Position numbers and translations under genes: made by a program. A stretch of 64,000 bases of DNA from a virus. The notes below the pieces were generated by a model. It was not told the origin of the DNA. It did no database searches and was given only the letters and a program-made list of their open reading frames with translations. Within the stretch, counting starts at the first letter, position 1, and each line of letters begins with the position of its first letter. Positions 903-59,006 of this stretch are shown here, piece by piece. The stretch is from the IMG/VR virus record IMGVR_UViG_3300045988_167063, one strand, 5' to 3'.

Positions 903-969
903 AATATAATCACCTTTCTTTGTTTTATTTCTTATGGTGACTACATTATATCACATAATATTTAAGATG

Positions 970-1218
970 TCAAGAGGAAAATGGAAAATTATCGTTAGTT
1001 TTTTCTACTACTTTTGTTGGTGGTACACAACAACAATCTAAATTTGGCAATATTTTTTCATACATTACCCTACTTCTAAATATATTATCAATTTGACTTA
1101 AACACTCTGCAACCTCTTTAAGTTCGCTAACATACATTTCATCATATTTTCTTGACTCTATTTCTGCTATTAGTCTATCAATTTGTGTATCAATCTTATC
1201 TCTTATACAATTTTCCAT
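970..1218 (-). CDS. hypothetical 82-aa protein with Cys-rich C-terminus (LDCCCVPP)
   Basis: ORF track; co-oriented in the accessory cassette. Confidence 0.55.
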   Translation of the reverse strand: MENCIRDKIDTQIDRLIAEIESRKYDEMYVSELKEVAECLSQIDNIFRSRVMYEKILPNLDCCCVPPTKVVEKTNDNFPFSS

Positions 1219-1242
1219 TTTCTATAAAGCCACCTTTCATAA

Positions 1243-1602
1243 TCAAGCATTTGTAAAATTGTATCTCAATATTTTAATGATTTGTTTTAAATCATCTTGT
1301 TTTATCTCTCCAAGTAACCTTTCTATTCTCTTTTTGCTTATATCTCTTATACATTCGCATAAAACAGTATTTGTCTTTTTTGCAAAGAACAGATAATCGT
1401 CACGAGATAATTCGTAATGATTTATCATATTTTTTTTGGTTGTACTTGATGTAATTGGAATAACAATAACATTATTCCGATTTTTATTCAGCATTTCTGC
1501 CGAAACAACAATACAAGGTCTTATACCCTTTTCCTCATTGCCAACATTTTCGTCACCAAGATTAACCATATAAATTCCACCTTGTTTTATGCTTCTACTC
1601 AT
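1243..1602 (-). CDS. mazF: MazF/PemK-family endoribonuclease toxin
   Basis: KQGGIYMVNLGDENVGNEEKGIRPCIVVS...VIVIPITS...TVLCECIRDISKKRI aligns by eye with the B. subtilis EndoA/MazF core (GDVY..L.P..G.E..G.RP.lVi...P.T....v...QIRtiDK.Rl). Confidence 0.8.
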   Translation of the reverse strand: MSRSIKQGGIYMVNLGDENVGNEEKGIRPCIVVSAEMLNKNRNNVIVIPITSSTTKKNMINHYELSRDDYLFFAKKTNTVLCECIRDISKKRIERLLGEIKQDDLKQIIKILRYNFTNA

Positions 1603-1967
1603 ATCTTTTTAGGTTTACTTGTTACTACTTTCTTTTTTTGTTCAAAAGGTGTCAACGAAACATCATAAATATCATCAATTCCCTCTTGAACATATACATA
1701 TTCGGGTACACTCTTAAAAGTGTTTTTTACTTTAATTGTAGTGTCCTTATATTCAATATATAAATATCCCCTACGCTCAAACAAAACTCTATTCGAGCCT
1801 TTTGGAATTTCCTTTAAATCTTTCACTTTACAATTTTCCCACCTGTCATTGAGAATAAATTTATTTTGCAAATTACAGAATTTACTATAATTGCAAATAT
1901 TATTAGTTTTTTTACAAAATAAATATTCTTTGCCTTTAAAATTCCTATATTCTGTATAAAAACACAT
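1599..1967 (-). CDS. hypothetical protein, candidate non-canonical antitoxin partner of MazF
   Basis: 122-aa ORF whose stop overlaps the mazF start by 4 nt, the usual antitoxin position. Cys-rich N-terminus; no AbrB/MazE-like motif recognised. Confidence 0.6.
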   Translation of the reverse strand: MCFYTEYRNFKGKEYLFCKKTNNICNYSKFCNLQNKFILNDRWENCKVKDLKEIPKGSNRVLFERRGYLYIEYKDTTIKVKNTFKSVPEYVYVQEGIDDIYDVSLTPFEQKKKVVTSKPKKI

Positions 1968-1982
1968 AAGTTTATCACCTAT

Positions 1983-2013
1983 AAAAATGTGGGAGAGTAT
2001 AAAACCCTCCCAC
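1983..2013 (-). terminator. rho-independent terminator, second of a tandem pair
   Basis: Stem GTGGGAG/CTCCCAC with loop AGTATAAAACC (plus-strand text), followed by a T5 run on the minus strand. Confidence 0.6.
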
Positions 2014-2019
2014 TATATG

Positions 2020-2048
2020 TAAAAAGAGTAGAGTTTTACCCCTACTCT
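2020..2048 (-). terminator. rho-independent terminator, first of a tandem pair
   Basis: Stem AGAGTAG/CTACTCT followed by a T-run on the minus strand, just after the stop at 2060. Confidence 0.6.
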
Positions 2049-2059
2049 TGAAAGCAAAA

Positions 2060-2380
2060 TTACATTGCTTTATATTTATCAACTTTATATTGAATATGGT
2101 CTATTCTATTTAGAATTTCTGAATGAGTAAATTTCCAAATATTTGTCATAACATCAAGTGTTATCTTATCTGTTATTTCATTGTCTTTCTTTTCTTTAAT
2201 AAGATTTACTACAAAAGTATGCAAACTATCTACATTTGCCATACAACCCTCATAAATCTTAAAATACTCCTCGCTTATTTCAGCATATTCATCTTTCCAT
2301 TCAATAGCCTTATCAATATAGCACTCTGCTTTGTCGATAAAACAATTTATATCTTTAACAAGTTCGGCAATAATTACCAT
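2060..2380 (-). CDS. hypothetical protein (late block)
   Basis: ORF track, 106 aa, co-oriented and tightly spaced. Confidence 0.65.
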   Translation of the reverse strand: MVIIAELVKDINCFIDKAECYIDKAIEWKDEYAEISEEYFKIYEGCMANVDSLHTFVVNLIKEKKDNEITDKITLDVMTNIWKFTHSEILNRIDHIQYKVDKYKAM

Positions 2381-2393
2381 TTAAACTCACCCC

Positions 2394-2828
2394 TTAATGA
2401 AACATTTGATAAACTTCTTTAACTTTTGCTTTTACCATTGAACACTCTTCCATATCATCTTGACATATTTTAGCGAGTTCTCGGTAAACATCATTAACAT
2501 TATTTAAAAAATGTCCTAATTCATCGTGAGCCATTTGTAAATCATCGTCTTGTCTTGTTCTCTTATATTGTTCTTTGTAAGTCTTGTATGAAACAAATTC
2601 ATCCCAAGCATCTGCCAAATAATTGTCAATTTCTGTATGTTTAGCAATACTTTGAGCATTATCATCCTCATCGTATGCTTCACCTTTTATGACCTTGTTG
2701 AGTTTATGTTCCACTTTCATCAAATCCTTTAGATAATCTAAAAGATTTTCAGTAATTGACATATCACTTACCATTTCATATTCTTCAACAATATTTTTAA
2801 GAATTTTTTGGGCAATCTGTTTATCCAT
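2394..2828 (-). CDS. hypothetical protein (late block)
   Basis: ORF track gives 2394..2840. ATG at 2828 lies 8 nt after GGTGG, so that start is preferred. Confidence 0.65.
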   Translation of the reverse strand: MDKQIAQKILKNIVEEYEMVSDMSITENLLDYLKDLMKVEHKLNKVIKGEAYDEDDNAQSIAKHTEIDNYLADAWDEFVSYKTYKEQYKRTRQDDDLQMAHDELGHFLNNVNDVYRELAKICQDDMEECSMVKAKVKEVYQMFH

Positions 2829-3039
2829 TAACATCACCACCTATTTTATTCAAAATTAAATCAAGTTTTTTATCTTGCTCTTCTAAATGATTATGAATAT
2901 CTATAAGCATATTGTGCATATTTTTTTCTAAATCATCTTTGGTTATGACCTTATCATAAGTCATAATTCCCAACATAGTTCCCATTACAGAAACTACATC
3001 AAGAGCAGATATTTCTTGTCGAACATTATTGTTTGCCAT
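2821..3039 (-). CDS. hypothetical 72-aa protein
   Basis: ORF track; only a 1-nt gap from the upstream gene. Confidence 0.6.
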   Translation of the reverse strand: MANNNVRQEISALDVVSVMGTMLGIMTYDKVITKDDLEKNMHNMLIDIHNHLEEQDKKLDLILNKIGGDVNG

Positions 3040-3040
3040 A

Positions 3041-3469
3041 TTAAGACAATTTTGTAACTGTTACATTAGCATTTGTTATTGTAACAGGTGTTCCGTCATT
3101 TTGAATAGTAAGATTAAGTGGAATATTATCAGTAACAGCACAGCAATTTGGACTTACTCTAACCATAAACTGTGATTGAGATAAGTTCATAATTACAGTA
3201 TCAGCAGTAGCAGACTGTGAAGCCTCAAAGCCTTCAATCTGTGTGCCATTACCATACAAATGGAATGTCGCTGTGCCACCTGCCGTTGCGACTGTACTTG
3301 CCGTTGCAGTGAAATCTACAAGATACCAACCTGCCCTATGCAAGCTAATAGCCGAACTTCCTGCCGAATGTCTTACTGTGCAAGAATTACTATTATAATT
3401 AGTTGTAAATACCACGGCACTGCCTGTATTTACTGTTTGTGTAGTATTAGAGAATGTAGTCAAAGCCAT
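3041..3469 (-). CDS. C1q/TNF-like (BclA C-terminal-domain-like) jelly-roll protein, possible fibre tip or receptor binder
   Basis: Pattern FS..TQ.V..GSAV.F...I.H..GS..I.L...G.Y.V.F...A.F.LY.NG..I is typical of BclA-CTD-like domains. Start moved to ATG 3469, after AAAGGA. Confidence 0.5.
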   Translation of the reverse strand: MALTTFSNTTQTVNTGSAVVFTTNYNSNSCTVRHSAGSSAISLHRAGWYLVDFTATASTVATAGGTATFHLYGNGTQIEGFEASQSATADTVIMNLSQSQFMVRVSPNCCAVTDNIPLNLTIQNDGTPVTITNANVTVTKLS

Positions 3470-3530
3470 TATATCAAGTCCTTTCAAGTATTTAGCATAT
3501 CGCACTTATACTGAAATAACTTTATCTAAA

Positions 3531-3562
3531 TAGAAAAATGGCGAGTATTTCTACTCGCCATT
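3531..3562 (-). terminator. rho-independent terminator
   Basis: 11-bp stem AATGGCGAGTA/TACTCGCCATT with a 4-nt loop and a T-run on the minus strand, after the stop at 3612. Confidence 0.7.
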
Positions 3563-3611
3563 ATTATTTAATATTTGGTGCGAGTATGCACTCTGTCATA
3601 TTTTATTTAGA

Positions 3612-4298
3612 TTATGCTACTGTTCCGCAACCATTGCAATTACTGTAACCATATACATTTGTTGGGGTTGTATATGGTGAGCAAGTAATATAAGACGGAA
3701 TTGGGAACGGTCTTAAAAGGTTGACAAGGTTTGCAGACTGTGCTTGCTGTGAAAGTTGGAAGTTTGCAGTCTGTAATTCTCTATCTCTGTCCTCAAGTTT
3801 ATCACGAAGGTCTTGCATTGTATTAGCGTTAATCAATGCACGAGTAGCTTCGCCCTCTGCGTGAATTGCAGTAGTAATTTCGCAAGTGTTCTGTGCATTT
3901 TCATAACGAACTGCATCAATGTTGCGATTGGTTGTGCAACAGCAATCTTTCATTTGATAACCAAGTTCTGTAATGCCACCTGAAACACCATTAAAACCAT
4001 TAAGCATAGTTGTATTCATAGCATAAAAGCCATCACACAAACCATTAGAAATGCCATCAAGTTTATTAATAATTTGGTTAGTGTCAAATCCTCTCTGAAT
4101 ATCAGCCTGTGTTGCATAAGTGCCAACAGCACCATTACCATAGCCACCCCAAGCACTACCTCCACCAAAAAGAAGAATAAACACAATTATAAGAGCGAGA
4201 ATACCACCAGCACCACCACTAAGGAAACCGCCGTTGTCATCATTATTCTTTGTGAGAGCGAGAGCATCTCCAATACTTAAACCATTATCCATTGCCAT
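3612..4298 (-). CDS. membrane-anchored Gly-rich / Cys-rich protein with C-terminal coiled coil
   Basis: ORF track, 228 aa. TM segment ILALIIVFILLF flanked by G-rich runs. SD AAAGGAG upstream. Confidence 0.7.
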   Translation of the reverse strand: MAMDNGLSIGDALALTKNNDDNGGFLSGGAGGILALIIVFILLFGGGSAWGGYGNGAVGTYATQADIQRGFDTNQIINKLDGISNGLCDGFYAMNTTMLNGFNGVSGGITELGYQMKDCCCTTNRNIDAVRYENAQNTCEITTAIHAEGEATRALINANTMQDLRDKLEDRDRELQTANFQLSQQAQSANLVNLLRPFPIPSYITCSPYTTPTNVYGYSNCNGCGTVA

Positions 4299-4562
4299 AA
4301 TAAAAATCTCCTTTTACTTAAATAAAATATATATTTATATTAAATTTAAGAGCCGTACGCATCTCTTAAATAAAATATCATTTATTAAAAGAGAGTACAA
4401 CTAAAAGAGATTTTAAAGTTAAGGGTTTACTTAAAAACATTAATTGCACCCCCTTGTAGTACAAATAATGTTTTGATTGTATTAACCAAAATCATATTAT
4501 TTTGATTGATTGTTTAAAGAAAGCACAATCAATATTTCTAAAGCCACCTTTCAAAATATATG

Positions 4563-4829
4563 TCACATAAAGTGTTTAAGAAAATTTCCTATACCCTTTA
4601 TATTTTTTAAATTTCCTTGAGTAGTTTTCATTATTTCCTCAGCCTGTTTTGTTGCTTGATTTATCTGTTCTTGAGAAAATTGCCCACTACTCTGCATTTT
4701 TGCTAATAGCTCATTTGGGTCTAAATTTTTCATATTCATAACATCAACGAATTTTTGAAAATTATTCATATTGAACCCATTACCATTAGACTGTGAAGAA
4801 CCCATAGAAAAAGGATTAAAAGATTTCAT
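4563..4829 (-). CDS. hypothetical 88-aa protein
   Basis: ORF track; its start overlaps the upstream stop. Confidence 0.6.
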   Translation of the reverse strand: MKSFNPFSMGSSQSNGNGFNMNNFQKFVDVMNMKNLDPNELLAKMQSSGQFSQEQINQATKQAEEIMKTTQGNLKNIKGIGNFLKHFM

Positions 4830-5335
4830 TACTTCGCCTCCCTATTTTGAGTTTTGGTAGGTTTAACTTTTGATAATTCTTGAATAGTATTATTCTGTTG
4901 AATTATAACATCTTTTAACCTATCAACCTCACTATTAAGTTCGTTAAATTTGTCAACAGTTACATAATTTTTATTTTCTTTTGTTTCTGAATTATTAAAA
5001 TCAATCTCGTGTAATTCGTATGCCCCAAAACTCGGTTGCCCCACGGCTGAAACCGCTTTAACATAAATTTCAGGCTTGCTTGTATGTCTAAACCACCTTA
5101 TTTGTCCGTTTGGCACATTAAAGTCTTGTGCCTCTTGCATACTTGAAACTGTAATAAAATCAAAATTAGTATTAGTCATTTGACTATTATTATTATTTTG
5201 TTGTTCTACCATATTCATATATCTGTTATATCGGCTATCATTATTAAAATTATTTTGAAAGCCATTTGGTTGTTGATAAGTCATTCCATAATTATTAGGA
5301 AAGCCATAACCACCATAACTCATTCTATAAGCCAC
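4829..5335 (-). CDS. hypothetical protein with N/Q/Y-rich N-terminus
   Basis: ORF track, 168 aa. Confidence 0.65.
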   Translation of the reverse strand: MAYRMSYGGYGFPNNYGMTYQQPNGFQNNFNNDSRYNRYMNMVEQQNNNNSQMTNTNFDFITVSSMQEAQDFNVPNGQIRWFRHTSKPEIYVKAVSAVGQPSFGAYELHEIDFNNSETKENKNYVTVDKFNELNSEVDRLKDVIIQQNNTIQELSKVKPTKTQNREAK

Positions 5336-5351
5336 CTTTCACTATGTACTA

Positions 5352-5376
5352 TTGCGTGAGTATAAAACCCACGCAA
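5352..5376 (-). promoter_or_regulatory. intercistronic hairpin with conserved loop AGTATAAAACC
   Basis: Stem TTGCGTG/CACGCAA. The 11-nt loop is identical to the hairpin at 1989-2013, but the stem differs. Confidence 0.5.
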
Positions 5377-5399
5377 TTTATATTTAAACTAATTTATAG

Positions 5400-6356
5400 T
5401 TATGCACTAACATTTACTACACAAGCAGTAGTAAGAGTAGTCTTACCCTTTGCTACAATCTCAATAGTAGTAACTCCGTCAGTAGTCTTTGCTGTAACAG
5501 CACCATTATTGTCTACTGTTGCAGATGTACCTGAAGCAGTAAATGTAAGCTTAGTATTGTCAATCAACGAAGGCTGTGTGCCATCTGAATACATTTTATA
5601 AACTTTAATTGTCTGTGTTTCATTATGACCGAGTTCAATATTGCCACCTGCAACTACAAGAGCAGAAACATTAGCAAGCTCATCCTGTCCGTAAATGCAT
5701 TCTGTAATAACTGCATAATAGCCGTGGTCTGAACAGCCTACATTACCTGTAAATGTAGCAAGTGCTGTACCTGAAAGTGAAACAGAAGCAATGCCACTTG
5801 AGGTAAGCGACAAATCTTGTGAGCCTTCAAGTTGGAAATTAGGAATATCAACTACAATATCACCTATTCTTGAGGCATTACTTTCAATTGTTTCGCCTGT
5901 TGCACCACTCTTGAAAAGCGGAATTGTCATTACAGCGTGACAAACAGAAGGAACATAATCTGCATTTACAGTAAATCTACGAGCAGTAGCATCCGAGATT
6001 ACATATTTAATACAAATCGTTGAACCTACAACAAGTCCATCAACTGTTGCTTTATTTTCGCCTTTTGTAAAATCAAATTTCTTATAAGCATCATCAGCTT
6101 CTGTTGACAATTTATACCAACCAATAGTGCCACTTGTAGCAGTAAAATCTTTAGGTGTTTGAGCCACTTCAAGAGTATCTTTCTCTTTTACAGTAAATTG
6201 TTCAACAGTAAGAATATCTGCACCTGCGGTAATACCACCACCACAGCTAAGTGCAATATAATTCAAATCCCAAATTTGGTCTGTAAGTGTAAGACCAAAT
6301 GAGGAGTCGTGATAATACCTGCCGAGGAGAATATTACATTCAAAATAGTTTTTCGG
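5400..6356 (-). CDS. virion (major-tail-like) protein with C-terminal Ig-like Big_2 domain, exon 2
   Basis: Long ORF. The C-terminus TFTASGTSATVDNNGAVTAKTTDG..IVAKGKT looks like a Big_2 domain. The frame is open only 5 codons upstream of the annotated ATG. Joins exon 1 across an intron. Confidence 0.6.
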   Translation of the reverse strand, partial: PKNYFECNILLGRYYHDSSFGLTLTDQIWDLNYIALSCGGGITAGADILTVEQFTVKEKDTLEVAQTPKDFTATSGTIGWYKLSTEADDAYKKFDFTKGENKATVDGLVVGSTICIKYVISDATARRFTVNADYVPSVCHAVMTIPLFKSGATGETIESNASRIGDIVVDIPNFQLEGSQDLSLTSSGIASVSLSGTALATFTGNVGCSDHGYYAVITECIYGQDELANVSALVVAGGNIELGHNETQTIKVYKMYSDGTQPSLIDNTKLTFTASGTSATVDNNGAVTAKTTDGVTTIEIVAKGKTTLTTACVVNVSA

Positions 6357-6739
6357 CATTAAACTATTTTTCTTTTATTATAAAACGCTACTTTTATAAT
6401 GCTATTTCGTTCACACTAATAGCCACATTCTTTCGATATGTGATAAGACTATTTCTTCACCTTTAAATTAAAGGGCAACCCATTTCTTCCTCCAAACACT
6501 TGAGGCTTTACTCTCTCCCGAGATAGTCGTTTAACCTTTTCCTATTCAGAACTTGGCGACCAAACTTCCATTGTTGCTTCTACTTAGGATTTAACCATAT
6601 AGAAATTTCTGTTGTTGTTTCTGCTTTCGCAACATTCATAAAATCATATTTCATATTTTATTGTAGTAACAGAACTTTAGGATTTACTGGTTTTAAGGTT
6701 GTGTCCTATGCTAATCACTTAACATACGGAGCATTAGTT
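6357..6739 (-). mobile_element. ORF-less group I intron (boundaries approximate)
   Basis: 383-nt ORF-free gap splits one reading frame. The 5' exon ends in U (..CAGAGU) and can pair with GCUC 7 nt into the intron. P7-like GACTAT/ATAGTC pair present. The last intron nucleotide is G. Confidence 0.6.
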
Positions 6740-24046: not shown

Positions 24047-24936
24047 CAATATGTTATCGTATAGGTTTTTTATCCCATACCTCTTATGGTTTCCCATAAG
24101 TTCAGACTATCTCTTTACCCTCGTCTTATCCGTTAGGGTATTCGGCACTCTTGCAAAGGATTATTGTTTGTCTACTCACCTTGTAGTCGTTAAACCTTAC
24201 TGCCTACTTTTACGACATTCAGCAGTCTTGGTAATTGATTGGCTTATGTGTGTTAATTTTTGCAATATATCCATAGCAAGGCTTATTACATTTTGCCCTT
24301 CTTGCTATAAATCCACTAATTGCATTTATGCTTCCTTTAAGGTTCTGTTTAGTTTTAATCCATTCCGAACAATTCTTTATGCAAGAAAACGATTTTACCA
24401 AATTATCATTTTTATATAAGTCGACAGACTTACTTTTACCATTTTTATCTCCGAGTTTACAAACACTATATTTACCAATATCGGAACTATATCGAACATT
24501 ATCTTTGTGTGTAATCCATTCAAGATTATCAACACGATTATTTGTTCTATTATAGTCTTTATGATTTATTTCTAAATATTTATTTGGATTTGGAATAAAT
24601 GCTTCTGCTACTAATCTGTGAACAGATACATATCTTTTATTTCCACACATTTGTAAACAAACTACTTTATATCCATCTGAATTTGTTTTTGGCTTTTTAA
24701 TCTTTTCATTCCTTACAATATATCCACATTTTGCTTGTGGATGAGGAACTTTTCTACAAAGAGATTTTACTCTTCCAAAATTACTAATTTGATAATAGCC
24801 TAAAAATCCATCTATATCCTTCCATTGTTCTTTCAAAAAATCACCTCCTTGTTTATTTTTTTACACACACTTAGCGTTCCAATTTTCACCGAATAGTTTT
24901 AGAAAAGTGTTTCCACTTAACCGACCCATTTTATTA
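24047..24936 (-). mobile_element. group I intron carrying an HNH homing endonuclease gene
   Basis: The 5' exon ..AAUGGCU pairs with GGGUC 9 nt downstream. The 3' end CTTATGG-GAAA-CCATAAG..GTATGGG-N8-CCTATAC-GATAACATATTG matches the terL intron family. The last nucleotide is G. Confidence 0.75.
24219..24836 (-). CDS. intron-encoded HNH homing endonuclease (NUMOD4 + HNH_3)
   Basis: N-terminal EQWKDIDGFLGYYQISNFGRVKS (NUMOD4). HRLVAEAFIPNP..INHKDYNRTNNRVDNLEWITHKDN (HNH). Confidence 0.85.
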   Translation of the reverse strand: MKEQWKDIDGFLGYYQISNFGRVKSLCRKVPHPQAKCGYIVRNEKIKKPKTNSDGYKVVCLQMCGNKRYVSVHRLVAEAFIPNPNKYLEINHKDYNRTNNRVDNLEWITHKDNVRYSSDIGKYSVCKLGDKNGKSKSVDLYKNDNLVKSFSCIKNCSEWIKTKQNLKGSINAISGFIARRAKCNKPCYGYIAKINTHKPINYQDC

Positions 24937-30050: not shown

Positions 30051-30316
30051 TGACAGAAAGTAATGTATTTTTAAAATTTGGTGCATTGAGTAACGATTTT
30101 AATACTCAATTCAAACAGCAAGGTTATGAATTGAAAAACAAAAAAATACCTATCCAATTCACCAATATGGTTACAGTTGTCCGTTGTAAAAATTGTAAAC
30201 ATTATATCACAAACACAGAATTATTAGGCAATGTATGCAATCGCTTGTTTACAGTATTTCCAATGAAACCCAACGATTTTTGCAGTTATGGAGAACGGAA
30301 AGGAGAGCAAAAATGA
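30050..30316 (+). CDS. hypothetical 88-aa protein (CxxC)
   Basis: ORF track; TAATG-coupled to its neighbour. Confidence 0.6.
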   Translation: MTESNVFLKFGALSNDFNTQFKQQGYELKNKKIPIQFTNMVTVVRCKNCKHYITNTELLGNVCNRLFTVFPMKPNDFCSYGERKGEQK

Positions 30317-47241: not shown

Positions 47242-48126
47242 ATGACAAACACAGAGTTAATAAAGATATTTGAACAGACAATAAGGCAAAAACCATTCTC
47301 TTTAAGTGAGAATACAATTAAGACTTATTTATATCATATTGATAGTCTTTTAAAATTCCTCGACAATAAAAACATTGCCGAGATTATAACAAAAGACATT
47401 AAAAAATATTTGTTTAATATCAGTTCTGTGGGTGTTTCAGATACAACCTATAATATTTCATTGGCAGGGTTTAAATGCTTGTATAAAGCTTTGAGATACA
47501 ATCCTATGACAGAAGATATTATTCAAAATAATCCAGCTATTGATATTCCAAGTATCAAAAACGCAAAACAAAAGAAAAAGACACCTTTAAATGAAATTGA
47601 AAAACAGGCATTATTGCATAGTTGTAAAAATGTAAGAGATTATGCTATTCTTGTAACTTATTTGAATGTTGGCTTGCGTGTTCACGAACTTGTTAATTTA
47701 ACACTTGAACAATATCTTAATCGTGGCGAAAATGGCGAAATTAAACTTGTTGTTAATAAAGGCTCTTATGATGATGAATATATTTTTATCAACGAACAGA
47801 CCGAAAAGGCAATAGATAATTATATTAAGAATTTAAGAAAAGATTGTGGCTGTAAATATCTTTTTGTATCAAATCAAGGCAACCAAATGACACCAAGTTG
47901 TATTTCTAAAACTATTAAGACTTTGGCAAGAAGAAGTGGTAAGTTTTCAGAAGATAGAATTTCACAATTATCAAATCATATTATGCGACACACTATGGCA
48001 ACTGATTTAGTTAATGAAAATGTGCCGATTGATGTTGTTGCAATGGTATTAAGACATCATAGTCTTGCAACAGTTATGACTTATGCAAAGACGGATAAAG
48101 AAAGAGTTATGGAGGCAGTAAGATGA
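47242..48126 (+). CDS. tyrosine recombinase (XerC/D / phage integrase family)
   Basis: N-terminal SAM-like core-binding region, GLRVHELVNL (Arg I), HIMRHTMATDL (H-x-x-R) and LRHHSLATVMTYAKT (catalytic Tyr). Confidence 0.8.
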   Translation: MTNTELIKIFEQTIRQKPFSLSENTIKTYLYHIDSLLKFLDNKNIAEIITKDIKKYLFNISSVGVSDTTYNISLAGFKCLYKALRYNPMTEDIIQNNPAIDIPSIKNAKQKKKTPLNEIEKQALLHSCKNVRDYAILVTYLNVGLRVHELVNLTLEQYLNRGENGEIKLVVNKGSYDDEYIFINEQTEKAIDNYIKNLRKDCGCKYLFVSNQGNQMTPSCISKTIKTLARRSGKFSEDRISQLSNHIMRHTMATDLVNENVPIDVVAMVLRHHSLATVMTYAKTDKERVMEAVR

Positions 48127-49186: not shown

Positions 49187-49260
49187 AGAGAGTTAGTATA
49201 ATAGTAGTACAACAGACTTTGAATCTGTCGGAAAAGGGGCAGAACCTTTACTCTCTGCCA
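49187..49260 (+). tRNA. tRNA-Gln(UUG)-like cloverleaf with non-canonical D and T loops and an encoded CCA
   Basis: Acceptor AGAGAGT/ACTCTCT, D stem GTAT/GTAC, anticodon arm ACAGA-CTTTGAA-TCTGT, T arm AAAGG-GGCAGAA-CCTTT, then GCCA. Confidence 0.55.
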
Positions 49261-49956
49261 ATCCCTAACGGCGAGGGTTATAATGTGTCCGTACATAAGA
49301 TGAAATCAAATTCCCTAAATGGAGAGTAATCGTGTGTCGTTTTAGGTTTTGCGACTATAAATAATAATTACTTTGTATAGTCTTTTAGGGTGACTCCAAA
49401 GAGTGAGATAATATCAAGAGTGGGTGTGTAAGTTTTGGTAGTTCTTATAGTCAAAATACTACTAAGCACAATATGATAATAGTGAGGTTCTAATTAAATA
49501 TTATTATTTAATATTCCGACTATTTGATAGTGCTTTTATGTGGCAAAAGATATTAAGGAATTTAGCCACGGATTTTTAATTCAAAATCTAAAATTCCATT
49601 AGACAGTTAGCCATTTAAGTGGCAGTGTGTTAAGCACAGAAGATTTTAGGCAAGTTAGTCAAGCCTTCGGTTAAGAAAGACTTAATTGAAAACGGACTAC
49701 ACGCAGTCTGAGCGTGACAAAATCAAGTGTGGTGACTTGAAAAGAAAGATAAGAAAAGCCAAATACTAATTATTACCAAAATAAGTTAGGACTTTTTGTA
49801 TTGAGTGGGTTATTGACCTATCCATAGTTTTTCTAATGTTGTAATTTTACGATAAAAGAGTGTGCATTATTTTATACGAATTTTACAACACCGACTTTGC
49901 ATTGTTTTTTTCTTTGCTCTGACATACGGCAAATTAAATATAGTATGTTATTTATG
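49261..49956 (+). ncRNA. candidate large structured ncRNA (~700 nt; ROOL/GOLLD-like context or a new class)
   Basis: No ORF of 60 aa or more on either strand. Sampled 60-mers are 38-42% G+C against about 28% in flanking genes. Many local hairpins. Bounded by tRNA-like elements and lies downstream of a consensus promoter. Confidence 0.5.
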
Positions 49957-50025
49957 GCAGATATAGTCCAAGTAAGGCATCTATTAACTAAATAGAAAAT
50001 AAGAGTTCAATTCTCTTTATCTGCC
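49957..50025 (+). tRNA. tRNA-like element with an aberrant anticodon loop
   Basis: Acceptor GCAGATA/TATCTGC, canonical T arm AAGAG-TTCAATT-CTCTT, 3-bp D stem. Anticodon arm TCTAT-TAACTAA-ATAGA lacks U33. No encoded CCA. Confidence 0.45.
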
Positions 50026-50053
50026 TCTATTGAATAATAATAGGAGATGAATT

Positions 50054-52895: not shown

Positions 52896-52974
52896 GTACA
52901 TAAGAATATAATTGCAAATTATTTAGCCACTTTGATTTTGTGTCGGAGTGGCTAAATTTAAAGGAGTGTTTAAA

Positions 52975-53676
52975 TTGTTCAATAAATTATTTAATAATGA
53001 TTGTTTTAATATAATGAAAAATCTAATAAATGAAAATATTAAAGTAGATGCAATTATTGCCGACCCACCCTATAACATAAAATATACTGATTGGGATAAA
53101 GAATTTAATACTCCTTTGGCTATTGATTTATGTTTAAATTTATTAAAACCCAACGGAAATTTGATTTTATTTCAAGGTTGGTCGAATGTTTGTAAAACAA
53201 TTACATATATAGAAAATGAGCATAAAGAATTATTATTAAATAATTGGATTGCATATGATAGAATAAAAGGTCGTGGAGCAAAGAAAAACTTTGTTTCTAC
53301 AAGAGAAGATATTTTATGGTATTCAAAAGGCAAAAATCCGACTTTTAATAAAATTTATTCAAATATCCCTAAAAAAACAGGCGGTATGGGCAAAAAGAAC
53401 GGAGAAGAAAATCGTGCATTAACAAATGTTTGGTATGATTTGTCACCTATTGTTCCTTGGAGTAAAGAAAGAGTGGCACACCCCTCACAAAAATCTATTC
53501 AGCTTATGGAAAGATGTGTAACTATTTGGACTAATGAAGAAGATACTATTCTTGATTTTACTATGGGTAGTGGCAGTACAGGTGTAGCTTGTAAAAACTT
53601 AAATAGAAATTTTATAGGAATTGAAAATAACGAAGAATATTTTAAAATTGCAAAGGACAGAATATTAAATGCCTAA
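52975..53676 (+). CDS. DNA methyltransferase, N6_N4_Mtase family (beta class, DPPY)
   Basis: IIADPPYN precedes [26 protein letters not shown] 52975 after AAAGGAG is preferred to the track start at 52948. Confidence 0.8.
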   Translation: MFNKLFNNDCFNIMKNLINENIKVDAIIADPPYNIKYTDWDKEFNTPLAIDLCLNLLKPNGNLILFQGWSNVCKTITYIENEHKELLLNNWIAYDRIKGRGAKKNFVSTREDILWYSKGKNPTFNKIYSNIPKKTGGMGKKNGEENRALTNVWYDLSPIVPWSKERVAHPSQKSIQLMERCVTIWTNEEDTILDFTMGSGSTGVACKNLNRNFIGIENNEEYFKIAKDRILNA

Positions 53677-56760: not shown

Positions 56761-57408
56761 ATGCTTAGTGGAACTAAACTTGCAGGTAGTAATTCTAAAA
56801 GAGGTAGAGTTGAGAATGATTTTTATGCAACAAATCCAAAAGCAGTTGAAATGTTGCTCTCAAATAGTGAATTTAAAAAATGGTTTTGGAAAGATTATAA
56901 CAATGGAAGCGATATAGAACTTTTAGAACCTTGTGTGGGTCAAGGACATATTATTCAAGGAATAAAAAATTATTATAATAACAAAAATCTACTTATTAAT
57001 TTTACCTGTCTTGACATTGCTGACCGTGGATATGATAATGTTATTGTGCAAGATTTTATGGAATATGATACAGATAAGCGTTTTGATTGTATTATGACAA
57101 ATCCACCTTATGAAATTGCAATGGAATTTGCACAAAAAGGAATGGAATTGTTGAAGCCTAATGGCAAAATGTGTATGTTTTTAAAAATTCAGTTTTTAGA
57201 GGGTAGAAAGAGAAGAGAATTTTTTGACAAATACCCTCCTCGTTATATTTATGTATTTGAAAAAAGAATGGGAACTTGGCGAAACGGAGAAGAATTTGAA
57301 GAAACGGAAGATGGAAAGAAAAAAAGATTATCGACAACAATGTGCCACGCTTGGTTTTGTTGGGAAAAGGGATTTACAGGTGAACCGATTGTGAGATGGG
57401 TTAGATAG
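56761..57408 (+). CDS. N6-adenine DNA methyltransferase (NPPY)
   Basis: LEPCVGQGHI (motif I) followed by IMTNPPYE (motif IV). Confidence 0.7.
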   Translation: MLSGTKLAGSNSKRGRVENDFYATNPKAVEMLLSNSEFKKWFWKDYNNGSDIELLEPCVGQGHIIQGIKNYYNNKNLLINFTCLDIADRGYDNVIVQDFMEYDTDKRFDCIMTNPPYEIAMEFAQKGMELLKPNGKMCMFLKIQFLEGRKRREFFDKYPPRYIYVFEKRMGTWRNGEEFEETEDGKKKRLSTTMCHAWFCWEKGFTGEPIVRWVR

Positions 57409-57417
57409 GAGATAAAT

Positions 57418-58204
57418 ATGAGTTTAGCTGAAATGTATAAGAGCGCAGATTATAAAGATAAAAATGGAATGTTGTTTAATAATGATTGTCTTGAGATTAT
57501 GAAGAATATACCAGACGAAAGCATAGATTGTATTATTTGCGATTTACCTTATGGAACTACTGACTGTAAATGGGATAGTGTAATTCCCTTTGAGTCTTTG
57601 TGGGGGGGGGTACGAAAGAATAATAAAAAATGATGGTGCTATTATACTGTTTGGTTCAGAGCCATTTAGCAGTGCGTTAAGAATGAGTAACTTAAATTTA
57701 TATAAATATGATTGGGTTTGGGATAAAATTCAAGGTGCTAATTTTCTAAATGTTAAGTATCAGCCCTTAAAAAATGTTGAAAATATTATGGTGTTTTCAA
57801 AAGGTCGTATAACTAATGGTAAAAGACAACCGATTAAGTATAATCCACAAGGAGTACACAAAACAAATACTGTAAAAACAAATTCATCTGATTATAATGG
57901 CACTTTTGGTTCATCAAGCGTTAAAAAAGGCAAGGAATATGTAACAACAGGAAGTGGTTATCCTAAATGTATTTTACAATTCGCAAAAGATAAAGATGGA
58001 TTGCATCCAACACAAAAACCCGTTAAATTACTTGAATACTTAATTAAAACCTACACAGACGAAAACAATATTGTTTTAGATAACTGTATGGGTTCTGGTA
58101 GCACAGGAGTAGCGTGTTTAAATACAAATAGAAAATTTATAGGTATAGAATTAGACAAACAGTATTTTAATATTGCAGTTGAAAGAATGAAAAATAAGGA
58201 GTAA
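57418..58204 (+). CDS. DNA methyltransferase (N6_N4_Mtase, DLPY) split by a frameshift at a G9 tract
   Basis: Track ORFs 57418..57633 and 57590..58204 are the two halves of one enzyme. CDLPYG..ESLWGG|[27 protein letters not shown] is in frame if the tract 57602-57610 is G8. Confidence 0.75.
57602..57610 (+). repeat. G9 homopolymer inside the methyltransferase gene
   Basis: tggggggggg. Confidence 0.95.
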
Positions 58205-58211
58205 AAAAAAT

Positions 58212-58943
58212 ATGGTATATATGGGCAGTAAATCACGAATAGCTAAAGAAATTGTGCCGATTATTCAGTCTTATATTGATGATAATAATATTCATAATTA
58301 TTTAGAGCCATTTTGTGGGGGGGGCAATGTAATTGATAAGGTAAAATGTGAACATAAATATGCAAGTGATGTTCATCCTTATTTAATTGCATTGTTAAAG
58401 CAAGCACAAAAAGATACAAGTGTATTTCCTGAAACGATTACTTTAGAAGAATATAAAGATGTTAAAGACAATAAAGAAAAATATCCTGCTTGGTATGTTG
58501 GACTTGTTGGGTTTTGTGCAAGTTATAATGGTAAATGGTTCAGTGGTTATGCAAATAATATTAAAACTAAAATCGGAACAGTTAGAAAGTATGCAGACGA
58601 AAAAATAAGAAACCTCATCAAACAATCATTAAACTTAAAAGATATTCAATTTACTTGTTGTGATTTTAGAAATATTAAGCCGACTATTAAGAATTTTGTG
58701 ATTTATTGCGACATTCCTTATAAAAATTCTACAAAATATAAAGTAGATGATTTCCCTTATGATGAATTTTATGATTGGTGTAGACAAATGGCTAAAAATA
58801 ATATAGTATTAGTCAGCGAATATAATATGCCAGATGATTTTGAGTGTATATGGCAAAAAGAAATTAAAACCTCATTGTGTATAGATAGAGCAAAAACAGA
58901 CTCAAAACGAGTTGAAAAACTTTTTATAATAAATTCAAAATAA
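58212..58943 (+). CDS. dam: Dam-like (D12 class) N6-adenine DNA methyltransferase containing a G8 tract
   Basis: MGSKSRIAKEI, EPFCGGGNV (FxGxG, encoded by G8 at 58317-58324) and YCDIPY. Confidence 0.8.
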   Translation: MVYMGSKSRIAKEIVPIIQSYIDDNNIHNYLEPFCGGGNVIDKVKCEHKYASDVHPYLIALLKQAQKDTSVFPETITLEEYKDVKDNKEKYPAWYVGLVGFCASYNGKWFSGYANNIKTKIGTVRKYADEKIRNLIKQSLNLKDIQFTCCDFRNIKPTIKNFVIYCDIPYKNSTKYKVDDFPYDEFYDWCRQMAKNNIVLVSEYNMPDDFECIWQKEIKTSLCIDRAKTDSKRVEKLFIINSK

Positions 58944-58975: not shown

Positions 58976-59006
58976 TAAGACAACAAATAGATAAGGAGAT
59001 TTTTTT

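Follow-up and report, generated by a model that had tools for sequence, protein, structure and literature searches.

Two G tracts lie in adjacent DNA methyltransferase genes of a gut phage

The stretch of DNA analyzed here, IMG/VR virus record IMGVR_UViG_3300045988_167063 (64,000 bases, G+C content 29.0%; hereafter the window), comes from an uncultured human-gut phage of about 105 kb. It encodes four DNA methyltransferases within 6 kb, named M1 to M4, and the adjacent genes M3 and M4 each contain a long run of G, of nine (G9, tract 1) and eight (G8, tract 2) nucleotides (nt), respectively. M2, M3 and M4 are three tightly packed genes on the + strand; M1 sits 3 kb upstream of this block and is called as a gene of 233 amino acids (aa) in public assemblies. 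The genes and tracts are listed below, ON and OFF denoting the predicted full-length and truncated states.

52948-53676, + strand: M1, N6_N4 DNA methyltransferase (PF01555, E=9.4e-43), without a tract
56761-57408, + strand: M2, NPPY-motif methyltransferase (PF07669, 30.1 bits; cut-off 25.3), opening the block of three genes
57418-58204, + strand: M3, beta-class N6_N4 DNA methyltransferase (PF01555), "type A" cassette, split in the window
57602..57610, + strand: tract 1, G9 homopolymer inside M3; predicted OFF in this copy, with G8 as the predicted ON length
58212-58943, + strand: M4, D12-class (alpha) N6-adenine DNA methyltransferase (PF02086), 243 aa, intact
58317..58324, + strand: tract 2, G8 homopolymer inside M4, coding for the three glycines of motif I (FCGGG); predicted ON in this copy

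An earlier note, made from the sequence alone, had singled out these tracts as the only G or C runs longer than five in the window, and a count of all runs bore this out. Their starts are 715 nt apart, and the next-longest runs are two G5 and six C5. Under a first-order Markov model, 0.03 G/C runs of eight or more are expected per window, and two such runs occurred in 0 of 300 simulated windows. GGG makes up 5.6% of the glycine codons (35/626) in the 53 other open reading frames (ORFs) of the window, and GGG-GGG encodes none of the 34 other Gly-Gly dipeptides in these ORFs. Because GGG is rare and GGG-GGG is otherwise absent from Gly-Gly pairs, the codon choice at both tracts is non-random, as the note had proposed. 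Both tracts lie inside ORFs and, at seven or more G/C, are long enough to slip.

The G9 of tract 1 breaks M3 after residue 64. The note had described the DLPY enzyme as out of frame with an immediate stop; the first part holds, but the stop lies seven codons past the tract. The two pieces are a 71-aa N-terminal ORF (57418-57633), which keeps motif IV (DLPY) and loses motif I, and a 204-aa ORF (57590-58204) with the C-terminal motif I. Shortening the tract to G8 does restore the frame: the resulting 261-aa product aligns with the whole length of PF01555 (E=2.4e-29; 103.3 bits, cut-off 26.7; profile positions 1-221), and the identical protein is found on 15 public contigs. The intact gene was called in two assemblies (L115 and L118; L numbers are our labels). 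The motif order, with DLPY at residues 42-45 and motif I near the C-terminus, is that of the beta class. In a PDB sequence search, the nearest solved enzymes to M3 were DpnA, CcrM, MboIIA and RsrI, all family-level matches only.

In M4, the G8 is in frame and encodes the FCGGG loop, which binds S-adenosylmethionine (SAM), in agreement with the earlier reading. The protein matches PF02086 (E=4.8e-18, 66.2 bits against a cut-off of 22) and has the alpha-class motif order, with FCGGG at residues 34-38 and the motif IV DIPY at residues 167-170. The exact protein is present on 33 public contigs, under the name "DNA adenine methylase [Phage sp. ctGns7]", after an uncultivated phage from a human metagenome. 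The term "Dam-like" is justified by the D12-class match; it should not imply GATC specificity, given that the window has no GATC site and that the PDB search returned no match to M4 at E<1e-3, including Dam, T4 Dam and DpnM. M3 and M4 stand alone, in the replication module of the phage. Of the features of a phasevarion, a phase-variable DNA methyltransferase is present at the sequence level; a Type I, III or IIG restriction-modification (R-M) locus is absent, with no res or hsdR/S gene beside M3 or M4. The window copy is predicted to have M3 OFF and M4 ON.

Tract length varies among near-identical genomes

We retrieved 12 independent human-gut samples (ENA and Logan assemblies) by exact-protein look-up of M4 and M2. 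Over the 2.2 kb spanning M2-M4, these samples differ by 2 singleton single-nucleotide polymorphism (SNP) columns, while tract 1 is G7 in four samples, G8 in two, G9 in five and G10 in one. Sequencing runs with an assigned tract 1 length include ERR14020809 and ERR13993847 (G8), ERR14002761, ERR11570499 and SRR22902044 (G7), and SRR30025315, SRR31022576, ERR14039877 and ERR14025654 (G9). The control homopolymers were an A8 at 58203 (constant in 11/11 assemblies), a T7 at 59000 (constant in 10/10) and an A7 at 57319 (unchanged in 10/11, with one A7-to-A8 change); tract 2, also a run of eight G, is G8 in all 12 samples, which belong to the window's own lineage. Within one set of 12 assemblies, tract 1 thus shows four lengths, and the control runs and tract 2 are constant or nearly so, which excludes generic homopolymer miscalling. 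Tract 1 mutates far faster than its surroundings. A uniform G8 tract, which would have pointed to a plain assembly error, was thus not found, and phase variation by slipped strands, as first suggested from the sequence, is supported by lengths that differ among near-identical genomes.

Closely matched pairs differ in the same manner. For tract 1, a G7 contig (L100) and a G9 contig (L105) show 0 SNPs in 5.2 kb. For tract 2, the DNA of 20 contigs with an OFF tract provided G7/G9 pairs with 0 SNPs (L200/L214) and 1 SNP over 7.1 kb (L198/L209).

The predicted products of each tract length (translations for G4-G14) were then looked up as exact sequences in a collection of 15 billion proteins, with the following numbers of contigs.

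Tract 1: G5, 0; G6, 1 (the ctGns7 record); G7, 7; G8 (in frame), 15; G9, 12; G10, 1; G11, 0; G12, 0; G13, 0
Tract 2: G6, 14; G7, 46; G8 (in frame), at least 51; G9, 20; G10, 1; G11, 0

The tract 2 count for G8 is the sum of 33+15+3 contigs, with sequences checked, and the out-of-frame counts derive from N-terminal fragments common to several sub-lineages. A change in length toggles between a full-length and a truncated product, and both classes occur in public assemblies. The distributions are centred on the in-frame G8, with both adjacent out-of-frame lengths common; G7 and G9 thus flank the in-frame length, as predicted by stepwise two-way slippage through the ON state. The switches at tract 1 and tract 2 are independent of each other.

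Alternative methyltransferase cassettes carry their own tracts

Contigs bearing the M2-M4 genes come from human-gut metagenomes and measure 88-110 kb. Relatives have, in the slot of M3, different N6_N4 enzymes, of type B or type C, or a 289-aa D12 enzyme as an extra gene. Some 27 residues at the N-terminus and some 27 at the C-terminus are common to types A, B and C, and their cores bring the overall identity to 34-41%; conserved ends with divergent cores are the pattern expected of recombinational cassette exchange. Most of the alternative cassettes carry a variable polyG tract of their own.

Type B cassette: tract context ENGGGR; G5, G6, G8, G9, or interrupted as GGTGGGGGA
Type C cassette: tract context IRGGRK; G7, G8, G9, G10, G12
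289-aa D12 cassette: G7, G8
Another N6_N4 cassette (L204): G7

The proposal would have been refuted by relatives lacking G tracts at these codons. Relatives instead carry tracts of differing length at these very codons, and further tracts in non-homologous cassettes. In some lineages tract 2 is interrupted, as GGGGGGAGC and GGTGGGTGC; these interruptions are synonymous or conservative and would lock M4 ON in the relatives concerned. In one relative (L126), M2 has a C7 run at the YPPR codons, where the frame needs C8. The layout of the slot at 57418-58204 also varies among samples (L081-L083, L102, L198-L217).

PolyG tracts recur in methyltransferases of related and unrelated phages

To place the two tracts in a wider context, we considered 837 kb of phage loci that had been fetched by homology, not by tract. 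They contain 24 G/C runs of seven or more, 22 of which lie in ORFs flagged as methyltransferases, representing 21% of the sequence (binomial P about 2e-13, before duplicate contigs were taken out). Pfam places one further run in a C5 methylase, giving 23/24, or 16/18 after removal of duplicate contigs. At least 10 distinct, non-homologous tract positions are found in N6_N4, D12, NPPY and C5 methyltransferases of related and unrelated phages, and the tracts were gained independently at these positions. Phages L089 and L155 (39% G+C) have three tracts in a four-methylase cluster, and L139 has G7 where L155 has G8; L092 and L144 likewise differ, with G9 and G7. Seven tracts of G7-G9 lie within 6.7 kb (946-6440) on L189 (JAQUWF010000008.1), a contig of 63.5 kb and 44% G+C binned with a Lachnospiraceae metagenome-assembled genome: five in a single C5-cytosine methylase (three of which break the frame), one in an adjacent N6_N4 gene and one in an uncharacterized gene. 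The two-piece methylases of Felixounavirus phages (Salmonella SP4, E. coli GEP101) were set aside, as they result from single-base or larger indels outside long homopolymers.

The nearest cultured phages by portal and DnaB (about 35% identity) are Enterocloster bolteae phages of about 100 kb, followed by SPbeta-like phages. The Enterocloster bolteae phages encode a Dam-like homologue (55% identity) with a tract at the same motif I codons.

CB473P1: G7, P-F-V-G-G-A in frame, one 238-aa coding sequence (CDS)
CB473P2: G8, homologue in two pieces, annotated as two "hypothetical proteins"
CB457P2: two-piece match, annotated as two "hypothetical proteins" (the tract was read in CB473P2 only)
CB473P3: tract interrupted, GGAGGGG

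In an alignment of 420 nt, CB473P1 and CB473P2 are otherwise identical. The 100-kb genome of CB473P2 (OP172756.1) has six G/C runs of seven or more, one of which is the methylase tract. The others, 7-9 long, are at 30227, 34763, 41476, 73002 and 87855: CDSs of the tail module contain two of them, a small CDS that follows the lytic amidase contains a third, and two are in unannotated gaps that may correspond to split genes. The small CDS has G8 in CB473P2 and G9 in its sibling CB473P1. PolyG switches of this family are thus not confined to methylases.

The tracts as probable contingency loci

Our interpretation, to which we assign a probability of roughly 0.78, is that the tracts are contingency loci in orphan methyltransferase genes, switching the enzymes ON and OFF and thereby providing methylation bet-hedging of the phage progeny. 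In the assembled genomes the tracts are real, non-random, hypervariable relative to their background and recurrent specifically in phage methyltransferases. Slipped-strand mispairing, presumably during phage DNA replication, would add or remove single G's far more often than other mutations arise in the genome. G8 yields the full-length enzyme, and the out-of-frame lengths truncate it after 39-71 residues, leaving a product without motif I, and so without SAM binding, or without everything beyond motif IV. M3 stops prematurely some 570 nt ahead of M4, and polarity from this stop may in addition lower M4 expression. The clade has further polyG switches in the alternative cassettes, which recombine into the middle slot through the conserved gene ends of about 27 aa. 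A progeny burst would then be a mix of methylation "phasotypes" released among host strains with differing defense repertoires: particles made with a methylase ON would be protected against the cognate restriction system, and those made with it OFF might escape methylation-dependent (Type IV-like) restriction or spare the cost of the enzyme.

Several points weigh against this interpretation. The evidence comes from assemblies and is population-genomic; heterogeneity within one phage population, a high switching rate and true reversion are predictions of the interpretation, and reversible switching within one clonal lysate is probable, with indirect support from G7 and G9 on identical backgrounds, flanking the ON length. 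The contig counts may double-count samples, as ENA and Logan can assemble one run twice. The enrichment was computed on loci selected around methyltransferases, and tracts homologous to one another do not represent independent events. The constancy of tract 2 in all 12 samples suggests that M4 is stably ON in the window's own lineage. The polyG runs in tail and lysis genes of CB473P2 make the association with methyltransferases strong but not exclusive. Finally, the purpose is plausibly adaptive, but the benefit of the OFF state is a conjecture.

Of the alternatives, non-adaptive decay survives best, although we regard it as unlikely. It holds that the methyltransferases are dispensable, the tracts mutational hot spots and the OFF alleles dying pseudogenes, and it would fit the OFF state of over half the contigs at either tract, the sporadic frameshifts of M2 at an A7 run and the L189 C5 methylase broken at three of its five tracts. 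Decay would not, however, assemble the rare codon GGG into long runs of G at 10 or more independent sites, specifically in methyltransferase genes. The OFF alleles show no second lesion and their lengths cluster at the ON length plus or minus one, G7 and G9 on identical backgrounds imply passage through G8, and the intact form is the commonest single state of tract 1.

It is very unlikely that the locus is a phage-borne phasevarion, in which the phage would persist as a lysogen or plasmid-prophage and its methylases would reprogram host expression. A Xer-like tyrosine recombinase (Phage_integrase and SAM-like N-terminal domains) is encoded at 47242-48126, prophage methylases such as PamA can regulate host genes according to a recent review (as cited in PMC13076061), and M4 would have no GATC substrate in the phage DNA, if it is GATC-specific at all. 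Against this, M4 has no relative in the 185,579 representative bacterial and archaeal genomes of GTDB, no contig with these genes is longer than 200 kb, and the phage has never been seen integrated. The Enterocloster phage PMBT24, the nearest cultured relative, is described as a virulent siphovirus of the pac type with a circularly permuted genome, and it, too, has a gene for a XerD-like recombinase (PMC11035940); the presence of the Xer-like gene in the window is therefore no evidence of lysogeny, and its product may serve in concatemer or dimer resolution.

Programmed recoding, by which transcriptional slippage or ribosomal frameshifting would give the full-length enzyme at any DNA length, is more doubtful still. 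Long homopolymers can promote slippage of RNA polymerase, and leaky expression is conceivable. A recoding signal should nevertheless keep both its length and its frame, yet G6, G7, G9 and G10 coexist with the in-frame form; the tract positions also vary between cassettes, which have no conserved downstream structure or slippery heptamer in common.

We give almost no credence to a sequencing or assembly artefact, in which miscalls of a uniform G8 would produce G7-G10: G/C homopolymers are error-prone on several platforms and some contigs have low coverage (1.9 for L121), but beside the near-constant control runs the same lengths recur over many independent projects, including the 2010-era MetaHIT sample ERR209666, the G7/G8 difference is also present between cultured, plaque-purified phages with complete genomes, and a consensus reports the majority allele, so that per-read errors of a few percent cannot alter an assembly. 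The polyG read-end artefact of two-color chemistry was ruled out, since the tracts are short, intragenic and glycine-coding, have conserved flanks and occur in a four-color dataset of the 2010 era.

Contingency loci as the preferred reading would extend beyond this lineage if several unrelated gut-phage lineages (29-45% G+C) carry recombining arrays of orphan methyltransferases with one polyG switch per cassette, giving 2^n phasotypes. Such arrays could form a general and so far undescribed layer of counter-defense, by which methylation hedges between Type I-III and methylation-dependent restriction, beside extreme site avoidance. We see this generalization as evenly balanced between true and false.

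Relation to known phase-variable systems

Phase-variable methyltransferases are a textbook strategy of bacteria. Bacterial phasevarions and phase-variable R-M systems are well known, including Type III mod, Type I hsd and Type IIG cj0031 (PMC5909438, PMC4889913), and there, as predicted for this locus, a simple sequence repeat (SSR) within a methyltransferase ORF switches genome-wide methylation ON and OFF. They are chromosomal, usually accompany a restriction subunit and have a host-gene regulon as their defining feature, whereas M3 and M4 are stand-alone, Type II-like phage enzymes whose presumed target is the phage's own DNA.

In phages, homopolymer contingency loci have been described in T2 and T4, including the T2 agt glucosyltransferase, where two restriction systems are traded off (Gomez, Barrick & Waters, bioRxiv 2025, PMC12633550). 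Like M3 and M4, agt has a homopolymer in a DNA-modification gene of a phage, with frequent frameshifts that are reversible (presumably so in our case) and allow bet-hedging. The T2/T4 loci are A-runs of six or more in coliphages, act on a 5-hydroxymethylcytosine glucosyltransferase and were shown experimentally. Here, by comparison, G8-G9 tracts lie in orphan adenine-type methyltransferases of an uncultured gut phage, with several switches per recombining array, and the evidence is population-genomic.

PolyG tracts are also carried by receptor-binding genes of Campylobacter Fletchervirus phages (Sorensen et al. 2021, Cell Rep 35:109214, as cited in PMC12823448, PMC12633550). As related by these citing papers, the G7-G11 tracts there likewise lie in phage genes and create phenotypic subpopulations; their targets are proteins of host recognition, in a host without mismatch repair. 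In the cultured Enterocloster relative, polyG runs occur both in tail genes and in a methylase. A polyG run in the methylase gene of Bordetella phage BPP-1 was noted in passing and "not studied further" (Liu et al. 2004, as cited in PMC12633550); it resembles the present case in gene type and, as far as the citing paper recounts, came without population data or a cassette system.

In a 2023 survey of human-gut phage methyltransferases (PMC10477858), the words phase, frameshift and homopolymer are absent, and searching a 2026 review on methyltransferases of prokaryotes (PMC13076061) by term returned no phase-variable phage enzyme. The principle is thus established; what seems not to have been described before is the class of gene involved, the arrangement in several cassettes and the ON/OFF polymorphism across metagenomes.

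Phage contingency loci have been recognized recently (2021, 2025), and this locus joins them with phase-variable methyltransferases, by which a phage would randomize its own epigenetic coat. If the interpretation is correct, it would explain why methyltransferase genes of gut phages so frequently appear in annotations as split or "hypothetical", why the methylomes of phages differ from sample to sample, and how a single phage lineage manages among hosts whose restriction and Type IV defenses vary from strain to strain. Annotation pipelines would do better to flag G/C homopolymers in phage methylases as switches than as pseudogenes, and host-range predictions and phage-therapy preparations may hide ON/OFF subpopulations. 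The polymorphism can be demonstrated from public metagenomes alone, and CB473P1 and CB473P2 provide a cultured model pair that is experimentally tractable in Enterocloster bolteae.

Restriction-site avoidance

The window is strongly depleted in restriction sites. GATC, CATG, CTAG and GGCC are each absent (66-151 expected each, about 120 for GATC), ACGT occurs once (83 expected), and CCGG and CGCG occur twice each (32 and 15 expected). CCWGG (20 expected) and GGNCC (28) are also missing, as are GAATTC, GATATC, ATCGAT and CTATAG (about 21 expected each); GAWTC is found 7 times (about 120 expected) and CCAG/CTGG 22 times (129 expected). Such extreme avoidance indicates that the phage is under heavy Type II restriction pressure, which, along with the four methyltransferases in 6 kb, speaks for the contingency-locus interpretation. 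Relatives of the clade (L081-L083, L102, L126, L127) show like avoidance, in contrast to the unrelated polyG-methylase phages L089 and L189. With no GATC site in the window, protection of such sites cannot be the role of M4; presumably the methylases act on sites that the phage is unable to purge, for example longer or asymmetric ones.

Self-methylation together with avoidance of host restriction sites is also a trait of the SPbeta-group Bacillus phages, among the large siphoviruses of Bacillota. Their methyltransferases are multispecific C5 methylases, which are not known to carry an SSR switch. The window's phage resembles this group in combining methylation with site avoidance and differs from it in the enzyme class and the switch. 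The genome of the cultured phage CB473P2 has one GATC site in 100 kb.

The phage, its host and other features of the window

The phage is of the virulent type, siphovirus-like, and belongs to the "Phage sp. ctGns7" lineage. A DNA comparison with 50,697 deposited phage genomes gave no close relative, the sole match being a 69-nt stretch; the phage therefore has no cultured close relative. This stretch (24052-24120), between two minus-strand ORFs of the window, has a counterpart of 87-89% identity in 63 genomes of Streptococcus (thermophilus and suis) phages, in unannotated DNA close to the left genome end. The host is probably a low-G+C gut member of Bacillota, judging from the portal and DnaB similarity to Enterocloster and SPbeta-like phages. 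The relatives of M3 in GTDB representatives, at most 52% identical and taxonomically scattered, were rejected as a clue to the host.

M2 has no G/C tract in the window, and its PF07669 match is weak but above threshold. Around its A7 run (57319-57325), frameshifting indels were found in 2 of the 12 samples, with products of 207 and 212 aa: an A8 in L108 and a 16-nt tandem duplication just upstream of the A7 in L109.

An Rfam scan of the window returned two tRNA genes (49187-49257 and 49956-50027) and nothing beyond them. ARAGORN reports only the one at 49956-50027, as a tRNA-Ser with the unusual anticodon ACT.

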